Below, in pieces: positions 162-61,451 of a stretch of DNA of 64,000 bases. The DNA is from Amoebophrya sp. A120. Taxonomy: Eukaryota > Protista > Dinoflagellata. A program made the position numbers and the translations under genes. How positions within the stretch are numbered: the stretch's first letter is position 1; each line of letters opens with the position of its first letter. Under the pieces are notes generated by a model. That model was given only the letters and a program-made list of their open reading frames with translations, was not told the DNA's origin and did no database searches. Where the stretch lies: assembly GCA_905178155.1 (NCBI GenBank), contig CAJINV010000018.1, forward strand, positions 1,158,609 through 1,222,608, written 5' to 3'.

Positions 162-1560
162 TCGTCTCTGCAGTTCCAACGCCTGCTGCCGTTCCGTGGC
201 CGTCTGGATTTCCGCGCGCGCCCGTTTGTTTTCCTCCTCCTCGGCCAATTTTTGCCGTTTCTGCCTCTGCTGCTCCCGCTCCCTCTGCTTGGCGACTTCC
301 GGATCTTGTTCGGACTCGAGGATGTACGTCCGCAGCTCTTGCCGCAACAGGTGCAGAGCTTTTTCTGCTTGTTCTTCATCCCCATTTACTATTCGTGTAC
401 TGCTCGCCCCGGCGCCGGCGATTTTGATGTTGCCCTCGCTAGAAGTACTGTGGTCCCGCCCGACCTCCATAGGCATTATATCTCCACCGTCTCTGATCTC
501 CTCCACGCACAGCAGCGTCTCGATTTTCCCTTTTAATATTTCCCAATCCGCGCACAGTGCGAGCACCTTCTCGCTCATCGCGGTGCCGTAGGTGGCGTGG
601 GAAAGGAGCCGCTCGTACGTCTGGTAGTCTGCATCGGTGATATTAGAACTTGTCGCCTTTTTAGTACCCGTTGTGTTGTTCTGCTGCGACTCGCTTCTTG
701 TAGCTTCCCGCACCTCCTCCGGCTCATGTTGATCAGTGGGCGCAGGATGGTTTTTCGCCCTCTGCTGTTCTTCTTTGTCCTGTTGCTGCTTCTCGAAGGC
801 CTCTTCAAACTTGCTTTCCTTCTCGAAACCGTACTTCGACAGCAGTCTATCTACGTATCCCCAGCAAAAACGTTACCACCCCCGAGTTGTCATGCAAATG
901 CCGAATGACAGGAACATATGTAATGCGCCTCTGCATGACAGGCATTTCCAATCGTGTTTTGGCATTTGTAATGCTGTAAATAGGATGAGAAAGTGGCTGT
1001 CTCATGCGGCTGCGCTTGCTAACCAGAACTACACTGCAGATGGAAACGTGTCATGCACAACTCCCTTAACTTTGAGATGTGTGTTGCAGATTTACTAACT
1101 TGACTATGGGGTGGGGATATTTTTGCACGGGATACTACGTCCTGCCGTGCGTGGGCCTTTTCCCGCATTGCGCGGAAGTCCGTTTCGTGAAAAAGCTATC
1201 AAATGCAAAGATGTCTGGGTCTGGAAACTTGTGATGCAAGACAGTCAATAACAAATGCACTGTAATGCGCCGCCAAGCATGACAGTTTTTTCGTGCTTCT
1301 GTGCTGCGTCTTCCGGATGAGAAACTGTGTTTTTGCATGACAGGCGAGAGAGGCTGTTTGTGGCCACGCAATACAGATTTAAGGGCCATGCCAGATCAGC
1401 ATGACAAGTTTCGCAATCTTCCAGACCCAGACATTTTTGCAATTCATAAAAGCAACCGCAGTTGCTGCTTCTGCTCCTCTATTGCTTGGAGCGTCAGGTC
1501 TCGCTGCTGCCATGCGTCCACCGCGGACCGGGCCTTTTTATAAATGGAGGAGGAGGCCAT
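1..1560 (-). CDS. Unknown coiled-coil-rich protein (3' end runs off the window), interrupted by 3 introners
   Basis: ATG at 1560 (MASSSIYKKARSAVDAW...). The frame is continuous into ORF 114..713 after removing elements 1197-1448 and 856-1134 plus one 5-bp repeat each. Confidence 0.7.
856..1134. mobile_element. Introner family B (TIR TATCC..AAAAACGTCCCCACCCC)
   Basis: TIRs; flanking repeat CTACG. Confidence 0.9.
1197..1448. mobile_element. Introner family A (TIR TATCAAATGCAAAAATGTCTGGGTCTGGAA)
   Basis: TIRs; flanking repeat AAAGC. Confidence 0.9.
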
Positions 1561-2772
1561 TGCTGTAGTGGATATCTAATACCGTGGGAAGAAGTACTTT
1601 ATACTGAAGACAAAAATTATGGCGCTACAAGCAACTACAACACTTGTGGTTTTGCGATAAGATGAAAAGTTGTAGAGTACATGAACAAACACGAATAGAC
1701 TGCCTGTTTATGAAAAGAAAATGGACCATGCCGAGGAACAACGTGAAAACAGAACTCCATGACCTGACAGTAAAACCTTCTGGGAGCGCAACTTTCGAAT
1801 CCTCGTGATCGACACTCATTTGATCATAATTCCCGTGTCATCCTGCATAGCAGATGATAGAGTGTGAGGTCCGTAGAGGCTCAAGTGCCGGAACCGTCGT
1901 CCAGAGATCCTGAAGTTTAGACAGATGACCATCCAGCGGTCGGGAAATACACGCTCTAAATCCAACAACGATATTCTGATAGGAATCCGTGTCTAAGAAC
2001 TTCGCGGCCACGAACACTTTTTTCGCAAAAATCTTTGCGAAAAATTCAATCCCGTCGAAGGTCAGCTTACAACCTCGCTTTTTCCTTCAATCTATAGCTG
2101 TTTTTTCGTCGTGCTTGTCGTTTTTTACTCGCTCGTGCGTACTTCTGCGTAGAAACTGTGCGTCACGTCTCTGTGGATGCAAAGGTTTCTGTTGATGATG
2201 CTGTGTTGGGGTAGGTAGTTTTTACAGCATCAAAATACTTCGCGCAGAGGAAGGAAAGCATCCCCTGTCGTGTGGCTAGATTTTTGCCCCGTAAAGTTGC
2301 AAGAACTTCCAAGCTTCATGTATATTTTCGTCGTCTCAAAACGAAAATAATCCTATCGCGCAGCTAGTTGATGTTTCATTTCATTTCATGATTTCCTGGA
2401 AATACGTCCTGTAGTCGCTAGATTTGTTTGCTTTTTAAATTAAGTTGTTGACATTATGAAGATGGCTGGGTAGTTCTTGTAGCAAATATTTCCTGTACAG
2501 CACGTCCTCTGCGGCACGTATCAAGTGGTGGCGTTTGCACGGCATTTTTGACGAAGACTATGGTAGGTAGTACTTTGCGTTACTCGTAGTCTAGTATATT
2601 CCTCTTTCATCTCACGCAGCTGCAAATTCCACCGAGAACGAAGAAGATCCCGGTCCTCTCGGCCCGACCTTCTTACCGTTGTCACACGACGCACGACCCA
2701 GCCAAGAACCAATTAGAAAAACAGCTGGTGCGCAAGAACCAACAACTCCTGACTCGCATATTACTTCTTCCT

Positions 2773-58987: not shown

Positions 58988-60887
58988 ATCGCTTGTCGTG
59001 TGATTTGATGATAAGTGCAAACCGACCTTTATCTTCTGCCGCGGTTAGTTCTTCATCGATATTCGCATAATGAATAACATTCTACGAAGTACATAAACAA
59101 AGTAGTTGAGAAAAAGAAAAAGCAAAATGAAATTAGGAAAAATAACACAGGGCAGGCGCTTCATAATCAGTCGCCTTCTTGTTTTCAGTATCGCTCGGGA
59201 GAACCGGCCTGCACACAGGTTACATTGAGCCGCGCAGCGTTCTTGCAGAAAACTTGCCCGGAAAAAGCAGTCAGCGCGCTCACCCCTCGGCGAGGAAGTT
59301 GCTGTCTTTTTCAAAGCGATGTTGATTTTGTTTGAAAAAAGTCGCAAAAAATACAGCTAAAAAGAGGTCCTGAGCTAAAAATAGCTGAAAAAAAGAGTTC
59401 CTGAGCTAAAAAAAAGAGTTCCTTGATGCATGCAACCAAACTCCAATAGCTCTGGTCACTACTTCGCTTTCGCTGGTAAAAAAACTAGGAAAGCGCAAAA
59501 TAAAGAATCGAAAAATTTGACAGTGCCTTCGCTAGAAACGAGATTGTGGTCGGGAATAAAAAGCGGTGAGAAACGCAAAGCAAGGAGCACGCTCTTGCTC
59601 GCGTTGTGGAGATATTAGAAAAGCTGTACCTTGATGAACGAAAGTCGCATATGTCGACGAACGAAGTCAGACAATGTGTTAACATCAAATATATCATGGG
59701 AGTACTATTCAGCGTTGATATTCACGAAGCAAACTAAGTAAAAATGCTCTATACGCACATATCTTCGGCCTACTGTACTGTGTATCTATGAATTTACGTT
59801 TAAGTACCTATGTGGAGCAATATTCAGCGTAGATATCGCAGGATTTACCACGACAATGCGAAGTAAGAATGCTGCTCGATCATCGGCCTACTGTGCTAGT
59901 ATGTGTATGTAGTAATCATGAAGCTCTGATATCTATGTTCTTGAAGCGACTATTCACCGTTCTTGCTTTGGTCCAAAGCTTTTCATCGGACACGTCTCAC
60001 GCGTCCGGGGGTGGAGAAAATGCACTTCCAAAGTGCCATCTTCTGCCCGACGGTGTGGAAAGAAGCTGAACCACTAAAAGTAGTAATTCGAAATTCCTTG
60101 CAGCTCCTGATCTGAAAATAGAGAAACGGGACATCGAGCACCCCGAAGGCTGGCTGTGAAAATCAGCATCGCGCGCCGTATTGCTCTGCAGTTAAAGTTA
60201 TCAGTATCTCTAGGCTTATTTTGCAGCGAGAGCATTTTACGATTCCCGCAGACCAAAACACGCTTCTGGAAAGCGAAGACTTGCACGTCGAACCGAGCTT
60301 CCATTTCCAATATAGGTAGCTCGGACGAGGAAACTAGTTCTAGTAGGAGTACTATCTCGCAAATAAAGCAAACAAAAAAGAACAAATGGGAGCACCAGAG
60401 CAACAAATAGCTAGCAAAAATAAACAAGAGGAAAAGATAAATGTGAGCATCAAGTGCTTCTTCGATTCAGAAAAGCAAAACATGGAATTTGCCAAATGCC
60501 GAGCTGCAACATGGAGGTTGCCATAAAGATAAACCAGACTACACTAAACGAATCGTTAACTACACTACCCCACACAACATCATAATGTGGGGGGAAAAAA
60601 TCACGGGCAGAGCCAGAACAAATTTGAGGTTTCCACGTCATGTTGTTAACTATCGCATGACAAACCGCTCGAACTTATGATGTTGCGGCAGGTTTGTTGG
60701 TTCTCATCTGTGTTTAGTTTCATTGCCGATCAATTCAAATATCTTGAATAGCAAGCTGCTTCCCCGCATGATAAAGTAAACATCGATTTAATGCATCTAT
60801 CCTGCTGGTGTCCCCACGCGGTGCAGCTGCACCTTACACCACACAAAAGATCCCGACCCCCAGAGGACGACACATTTGCAGGTGATA

Positions 60888-61451
60888 CGACGGGCGCGCC
60901 GAACTCCTGTGCGAACTGTATCCACAGTAAATTTCCTGTACATGTACAAACGCAGTCTCTGCATGACAAAACTTGCCTTCAATCCTAGTGTAGCATGACA
61001 AGTTGGACACTGCAAGTTAGCGAAATTTGTCATGCATTTTATACATGTACAGGAAATTTACATTGCATAAACTGACGCTTCATGTCACCGATGGTGAAAT
61101 TCTCGGGCACCTCGAAGAAGAAGTCGAGTATCCTATGCAAAAATCTTCTCACATCGCACTCAAAGAGCTTTGTGATTTTTTATATGCATGACAAATCTTG
61201 ACGCTTTTTTTTCTTTCCTGTTCCTAGTCCACTACATTTTTCCCGTAGCTGCATGACAAGGGTGTAAGTAAGTAAGGAACAACGGGCTCCTGTGCGCGGT
61301 CAGGCACTTTTTATTTTCCTTTTTGCAACCAAAAAACAGCAATGCACTGGCGCCGCGGAAGATGCGATGTTTTTTCTTGCGTATCAACGAACTCCGAGCG
61401 CTGGTTCAACATAGTGCCCACGCACATCACAGTCGCATGTTGAGCTGCCAT
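60888..61451 (-). CDS. 5' part of a small unknown gene (possibly ubiquitin-like fold), 3' end not resolved
   Basis: Removing elements 61129-61383 and 60919-61069 gives MAAQHATVMCVGTMLNQRSEF(V/L)DFFFEVPENFTIGDMKRQFAQEFGAPV. Confidence 0.5.
60919..61069. mobile_element. Introner family H (TIR TAT.CA..GTAAATTTCCTGTACATGTA)
   Basis: TIRs; repeat AACTG; internal GCATGACAA motifs. Confidence 0.85.
61129..61383. mobile_element. Degenerate introner (family B-like left end)
   Basis: TATCCTATGCAAAAATC..CACATCGCA / TGCGATGT..TTGCGTA; repeat TCGAG/TCAAC; in-frame join. Confidence 0.5.

Follow-up and report, generated by a model that had tools for sequence, protein, structure and literature searches.

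How are inverted-repeat elements that interrupt the exons of conserved genes, and that lack the GT and AG ends of ordinary introns, removed to the base from transcripts of the dinoflagellate Amoebophrya sp. A120? We address this in a 64,000-nt window (the whole stretch of DNA analysed: contig CAJINV010000018.1, positions 1,158,609 to 1,222,608 of the forward strand), in which elements running from TAT to ATA between short direct repeats lie in the genes for coatomer alpha (COPA), DRC7, and an immunophilin. These are the published introner elements of A120, and the system is already known (Farhat 2021, PMC7789003; statements on this and the other papers cited concern the passages covered). What we add is a specific, testable splice code: the elements appear to be cut at one register, N|TAT…ATA-NNNN, at which one base of the upstream repeat copy and four bases of the downstream copy leave with the element.

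A scan of the window for TAT…ATA pairs with 24-nt terminal complementarity found 54 candidates that do not overlap, of which 43 have a 5-bp flanking repeat without mismatch. In five windows shuffled by blocks, 8 to 16 candidates each were found, none with a flanking repeat matching at 4/5 positions or better. The curated set starts from the scan candidates, adds copies that repeat-first scanning, homology, or protein alignment revealed, omits three candidates with poor end matches (18934, 60199, and 61521), and holds 60 complete elements and one truncated by the window start (about 1-166). The roughly 60 elements of a preliminary description, made from the letters alone, are thus real, and its family tally (25 A, 10 B, 6 C, 5 D, 4 E, and 3 F) matches the clustering counts. 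Elements are 143 to 328 bp long, apart from a single 569-bp outlier owing to a nested insert, and sum to 16,221 bp (25% of the window). TAT…ATA ends were found in 56/60, a figure biased by the detection method, and the flanking repeats agree at 5/5 positions in 46 elements, 4/5 in 8, 3/5 in 5, and 1/5 in 1. Within the inverted repeat, positions 11, 12, and 13 are A in 45, 49, and 57 of 59 copies, families C and F giving a poorer fit to the pattern of TAT, 7 nt, and an A-run. A terminal stem was predicted in 58/60 sense folds and 57/60 antisense folds. All six multicopy families (A to F) occur in both orientations within the window, and confident strand calls placed the host gene on the minus strand in 53/53 cases.

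Exon queries were 100%, 95%, and 100% identical to named A120 proteins (COPA, DRC7, and immunophilin, respectively), and each whole A120 protein threads onto the window as follows.

2773..7245, minus strand: FKBP-TPR-cyclophilin immunophilin (P0124, 491 aa), with 8 elements and 4 GT-AG introns.
19396..28830 (ends approximate), minus strand: DRC7 (P0121, 839 aa), with 14 exon-interrupting elements and 2 more within GT-AG introns.
43478..52324, minus strand: COPA (P0001, 1256 aa), with 13 elements and 9 GT-AG introns.

The eight copies first counted in the immunophilin were recovered, the 12 reported for COPA became 13, and the "about 15" of DRC7 became the 14 in exons plus the two in introns. 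Farhat 2021 (PMC7789003) describes 29,850 A120 copies (17% of the assembly) with inverted repeats of 8 to 20 nt, in which TAT is followed by seven variable bases and then three or more A, and with direct repeats of 3 to 5 nt (5 bp in the example of the Fig. S19 legend). The window elements share with these the organism, TAT repeats, direct repeats, many families, hairpins, RNA-supported removal, and the lack of an internal transposase; given the protein identities of 95 to 100% and the presence of this repeat pattern, their earlier identification as Amoebophrya introners holds. There are also differences. Where Farhat 2021 gives 3- to 5-nt repeats, the duplication here is 5 bp: a pattern scan of metagenome contigs yielded 168 loci, all under one accession prefix, whose 351 distinct copies include 264 with an exact 5-bp duplication and none with an exact 6- to 8-bp one. 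Where variable splice sites and no clear end signature were reported, we find one register with U at +2. Near-full-length relatives of 54 of the 59 window copies tested lie in these loci (best identity, 71 to 97%).

Wherever checked, the elements are missing to the base from transcript contigs. Over the immunophilin gene, contigs of four runs (one study, at most two samples, RNA label guessed) skip the element plus 5 nt at 8/8 copies, with skip lengths of 284, 253, 309, 216, 287, 311, 266, and 181 bases; the same contigs also skip three GT-AG introns, so they are spliced transcripts. Among the eight are family A and B copies of both orientations, which extends Farhat 2021 as covered here by showing both orientations spliced. 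Skips of 826, 526, and 3724 bases in one 4718-base COPA contig equal the predicted values (826, 526, and 3724), which are sums over 22 introns including all 13 elements. The annotated proteins are reproduced by removing the element plus 5 nt at 34/34 junctions of free length, and a 35th (21297), for which the length was assumed, fits as well. Precise removal of the element plus 5 nt, as first proposed, is borne out by the immunophilin copies, the COPA totals, and the protein junctions; neither retention in mRNA nor the use of GT-AG sites elsewhere, the two outcomes that the preliminary description had set against its own proposal, appeared in transcript contigs. Cryptic GT-AG use was considered and rejected, given the observed skips and the number of copies lacking GT-AG at any register (below). 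Two raw-read RNA runs, X8 and X9, left the window exons uncovered, gave element-end fragments from other loci only, and are uninformative on expression. In X8, hundreds of reads match element ends only (49816-49876 and 44946-45030), with constant foreign flanks; these are abundant transcripts from elsewhere, or from another strain, that retain element sequence.

Where within the duplication is the cut? A perfect 5-bp duplication masks its position, and only imperfect duplications locate it. Donor positions are counted here from the first T of TAT on the sense strand (position 0), and nine junctions are informative.

3196-3443, minus strand: repeat mismatch at position 4; donor -1 or 0; RNA joint 3190>3444, skipping 253 (both=1).
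4481-4762, minus strand: mismatches at 1 and 5; donor -4 to -1, 0 excluded; RNA joint 4476>4764, skipping 287 (both=3); the protein-derived donor range equals the RNA-derived one.
20928-21212, minus strand: donor -3 to -1, from the annotated protein; two homologues have Leu here, against the Pro expected at register 0.
26973-27265, minus strand, eroded copy: donor -4 to -1, from the annotated protein; the homologue has Leu here, against the Ser expected at register 0.
28485-28812, minus strand, eroded copy: donor -3 to -1, from annotation only, without homologue support.
22971-23266, minus strand, eroded copy: donor -2 to 0, from the annotated protein.
48957-49235, minus strand: donor -1 to +1, from the annotated protein; Asn common to the A25 homologue.
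48532-48855, minus strand: donor -2 to 0, from the annotated protein; Ile common to the A25 homologue.
46331-46473, minus strand: donor -4 to +1, from the annotated protein, weakly informative.

The copy at 43693-44013 was left out of the count because the protein cannot distinguish its registers. The sole donor position common to all nine is -1; were the register random per copy, any shared value would have P = 0.020, and -1 itself P = 0.003. Two of the bounds come directly from RNA and seven from annotated proteins, with homologue residues backing four. The mirror register, -4, is excluded by six junctions and -1 by none, so the polarity of the cut goes with the direction of transcription, not with the element or the DNA duplex. 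Of the earlier wording "element plus one repeat", the length is right; the bases lost are one upstream and four downstream in transcript polarity.

At register -1, TAT occupies +2 to +4 and ATA occupies -7 to -5, so that U+2 and A+3 match the GT-AG introns of the host genes. Under it, U+2 holds in 60/60 window copies and a purine at +3 in 60/60, partly by ascertainment; in the three host genes, every one of the 22 GT-AG introns shows T+2 and either A or G at +3, and positions further in lack a consensus. The elements thus share U+2 and purine+3 with such introns and lack the canonical U2-type ends, GT (or GC)…AG. GT-AG is possible in 3/60 copies at any register and absent from 57/60; 56817-57075 (minus strand; a family A copy with sense end TGT) and 33218-33524 read GT…AG exactly at register -1. 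Among 223 copies, G stands at +1 in 71 and AG at the end in 21, with both in 9.

The Fig. 3 legend of Farhat 2021 (PMC7789003) calls the splice sites of the elements variable, and a register that slides within the duplication from copy to copy, with the shared -1 arising by chance, would account for that. Only nine junctions are informative, each is a range, and their bounds come mostly from annotation; even so, the probability of any shared register under random sliding is 0.02, the RNA and protein ranges agree at 4481, and Table S4 of the same paper has T second in 9/9 top A120 non-canonical motifs, while 9/9 A25 motifs start TT. We regard sliding as improbable. Counting against a fixed register, 7/9 bounds depend on annotated proteins, the RNA runs come from a single study under a guessed label and are possibly source data of that annotation, and Table S4 derives from a motif-preferring aligner. 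No statement of register -1 was found in the Amoebophrya and broader literature searched, although relevant material may exist in Roy et al. 2023, in theses, and in the parts of Farhat 2021 beyond that scope (Figures 3, 4, and S19-S25; supplement parts 1, 4, and 5).

The polarity of the cut also bears on whether the elements leave RNA or DNA. Excision from DNA (somatic elimination or precise transposon excision), with transcripts made from cleaned templates, would suit their transposon anatomy, and since contigs drop rare forms, low-level empty sites could exist among joints beyond those listed. Contigs of the DNA-like run X5, however, pass from the flanks into elements and through GT-AG introns, an empty site appears in 0/15 of the joints listed for that run, and the retained repeat bases follow transcript direction in 6/6 discriminating copies. 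We consider DNA excision very improbable; the somatic-DNA option of the preliminary description is argued against by the 1+4 split in transcript polarity. Ciliate-type DNA elimination was rejected on the X5 contigs and the transcript-contig skips.

What, then, cuts the RNA? A relaxed U2-type spliceosome, acting on the terminal hairpin, probably removes the elements. On this model, a transposase would insert them by a 5-bp staggered cut with little target preference, and both ends, being the same inverted repeat, would present the same signals and terminal stem in either orientation. The 5' cut would fall one base ahead of TAT, giving U+2 and A+3, with G+1 and a final AG dispensable, and the 3' cut would be measured four bases beyond ATA, possibly from a branch A at -7. 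Loss of 1+4 bases from the two repeat copies would restore the target sequence, so that insertions into exons would be nearly harmless and could spread. Positions +2 and +3 are read by the active site of the spliceosome by way of U6 and Prp8, and in some protists the distance from the branch A to the 3' cut is short and fixed. More tentatively, the A120 spliceosome may need neither G+1 nor a terminal AG and may read only U+2/A+3 and the branch A-7, both supplied by the palindromic end of the transposon.

Mutations at the element ends were compared in 174 homology-defined, strand-called copies from the metagenome loci (108 further copies were not strand-callable), of which two rows (L033:4834 and L129:398) were dropped as 2-base boundary errors. 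T+2 was changed 0 times and its pairing partner A-5 5 times, whereas T+4 was changed 5 times and its partner A-7 once (Fisher p=0.015 for asymmetry); +3 was changed once, and the sole A-7 change, with the first strand caller, lies in a copy whose duplication contains AG-GT. Such strand asymmetry is suggestive of what a 5' splice site and a branch A would predict. Of the A120 spliceosome, almost every protein has been reported, as have U2, U4, U5, and U6 (PMC7789003). The strains AT5 and Kv use GT-AG.

Several observations weigh against a spliceosomal reading. A second strand caller gives 1:6 and 4:2 for the two pairs (p=0.10), with a possible C+2 in L005:1359-1507 and one more change at A-7. 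Sense stems show no preference for G-U over A-C pairs (window, 50 vs 45; loci, 116 vs 134), so there is no sign of selection for RNA pairing, and no clear U2-pairing motif lies upstream of A-7 in element copies. U1 snRNA was undetected in A120 (PMC7789003).

The main rival keeps the fixed register and assigns the cut to a separate, non-spliceosomal endonuclease and ligase that would read the end of the TAT/ATA stem and measure off 1 and 4 bases. It would parallel the nonconventional introns of Euglena (N3-CAG…CTG-N5), which are released as circles and for which fixed spacers have been shown experimentally and circular products reported in the passages covered. The 57/60 copies without GT-AG, removal independent of element orientation, strong terminal hairpins (z -5.8 and -6.9), and the undetected U1 would all suit such a machine. 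Against it, the cut gives precisely U+2 and A+3, A25 elements with a different repeat likewise give TT starts (Table S4, as covered), and two copies read GT-AG at the same register; the end mutations, too, lean weakly towards the asymmetry that a 5' splice site and branch A predict, and away from what pure pairing would give. We hold a separate machine to be unlikely, though a good deal less so than sliding or DNA excision, and retain the relaxed spliceosome as the favoured agent.

Known systems bear on this choice. Euglena nonconventional introns (PMC12501133, PMC11282704) likewise have paired ends, no GT-AG, and slidable direct repeats, and their fixed spacers to the cuts were also found through non-slidable cases. 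They differ in having CAG/CTG with spacers of 3 and 5 nt, against TAT/ATA with spacers of 1 and 4 here, in having known circular products, in having no U+2 rule in the passages covered, and in belonging to a lineage unrelated to Amoebophrya; CAG and CTG at the Euglena positions (+4 to +6 and -8 to -6, respectively) are absent from the window elements. The elements thus work like euglenid nonconventional introns and are not members of that class. The MITE-type introners of Micromonas, Aureococcus, Symbiodinium, and Polarella (PMC9860276, PMC12130899, PMC11282704) have short terminal inverted repeats (TIRs) and target-site duplications and leave mRNA length unchanged, as here, but they carry or co-opt GY/AG sites, whereas here most copies lack GT-AG and targets lack clear G/AG enrichment; a splice site borne by the element or taken from the duplication, as in GT-AG introners of the Micromonas/Aureococcus type, does not characterise the A120 elements. 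Fritillaria non-canonical introns (PMC11282704, PMC13326754) are transposon-derived and use an adapted U2-type spliceosome; they prefer AG-AC and AG-AT ends, whereas the A120 elements are unconstrained at the first base and at the last four, and their use of a spliceosome is proposed. The idea that the GT-AG introns of the host genes are old element copies is not supported (TIR-geometry matches of 2-9/16, vs 9-16 for elements).

Where do the elements come from? They are likely non-autonomous DNA transposons: TIRs, a constant 5-bp duplication, multiple non-coding copies, and both orientations are the traits of MITEs, target-site composition is near-flat, and no clear target bias to GT or AG was found. 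A TIR family with integrase-like ORFs is described in A120 (Gozashti 2025, PMC12130899). Less favourably, Pfam detected no transposase or integrase in 74 ORFs (26 + 48, of 224), few of which overlap elements; no autonomous partner was found in the window or in 602 kb of metagenome loci, where five long copies proved to be standard ones enlarged by secondary inserts, of which two end in trinucleotide runs; and Farhat 2021 (PMC7789003) found no putative transposase in A120. In a comparison for empty sites or excision footprints, the loci gave no orthologue of window exons among the matches listed. Because neither a transposase nor an empty allele was found, the transposon nature claimed earlier stays one that we infer. 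The secondary inserts ending in ATC/ATG runs lie in family A and B copies (L035 632-1465 and L038 6314-6770), and these ends resemble retrotransposon tails. An Rfam search of the window gave no match, and nor did a search of viral contigs with the family A end pattern.

The copies are listed by family below; internal identities between copies reach 0.94.

Family A, 25 copies spanning 1197..58307, 23 clustered (orientations 15:8) plus 54300 and 56817:
copies 1-9: 1197-1448, 3196-3443, 6313-6573, 16393-16643, 20928-21212, 21297-21558, 22167-22421, 26374-26647, 27562-27829;
copies 10-17: 28865-29127, 31382-31646, 44379-44640, 44946-45207, 45609-45870, 46528-46780, 47648-47911, 47987-48247;
copies 18-25: 50993-51255, 51588-51840, 54300-54868, 55044-55295, 55355-55618, 56817-57075, 57112-57392, 58056-58307.
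Family B, 10 copies (7:3): 856-1134, 2838-3116, 4481-4762, 14222-14500, 24745-25028, 25097-25382, 34826-35104, 38162-38445, 48957-49235, 53961-54239.
Family C, 6 copies (4:2): 4795-5100, 14573-14878, 17813-18119, 30685-30991, 33218-33524, 49818-50122.
Family D, 5 copies (4:1): 3856-4159, 20527-20848, 31754-32076, 43693-44013, 48532-48855.
Family E, 4 copies (3:1): 4221-4431, 26027-26237, 27289-27497, 32938-33148.
Family F, 3 copies (2:1): 22500-22751, 25719-25967, 37870-38121.
Small or single families: about 1-166 (truncated by the window start), 6622-6797, 24474-24629, 46331-46473, 60919-61069.
Eroded singletons: 22971-23266, 26973-27265, 28485-28812.
54358-54658: secondary insert of about 300 bp within the family A copy 54300-54868, flanked by a 6-bp duplication.
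22167-22421, minus strand: nested family A copy, 12 bases within a DRC7 GT-AG intron (donor 22433, 424 nt), 3' end broken (ACA).
25719-25967: nested family F copy, 21 bases within a DRC7 GT-AG intron (donor 25988, 429 nt).

The family G of the preliminary description resolves into two singletons and the copy truncated at the window start. The two nested copies may be twintron-like, with a removal step of their own. The insert at 54358-54658 had no Pfam match and no second copy in the window or metagenome loci. A separate 516-bp inverted-repeat element with a 5-bp flanking repeat and non-TAT ends (36901-37416) carries telomere-like CCTAAAC repeats and, at 37225-37286, an internal palindrome that is perfect over 62 bp, and adjoins a dual-specificity phosphatase gene. 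DRC7 has an exon of about 11 nt at 21563-21572, flanked by a GT-AG intron and an element, and a cluster of direct and inverted repeats (19847-20184) within a 932-nt GT-AG intron. Elsewhere, four elements lie in or near a zf-UBP/UCH gene (14000-18300), which we take to be USP39-like, a 3'-5' exonuclease-KH ORF (41441-42286) has none, and about 7 kb (7300-14200) is element-free, its ORFs lacking Pfam matches.

Given a single register, the loosely defined "variable splice site" gives way to precise predictions of lariat joints and of invariant bases, and to a way of re-annotating about 30,000 A120 copies. If the U+2/A+3/A-7 code is true, splicing would be scarless for any copy, in either orientation and at any target, and the "variable" junctions, tens of thousands in number, would reduce to one code, N|UAU…AUA-NNNN. 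If the spliceosome acts here without G+1 and AG, the elements would show how far its active site can relax and how exonic transposons become harmless; if removal is not spliceosomal, they would represent a second, independent origin of a Euglena-like splicing machine.

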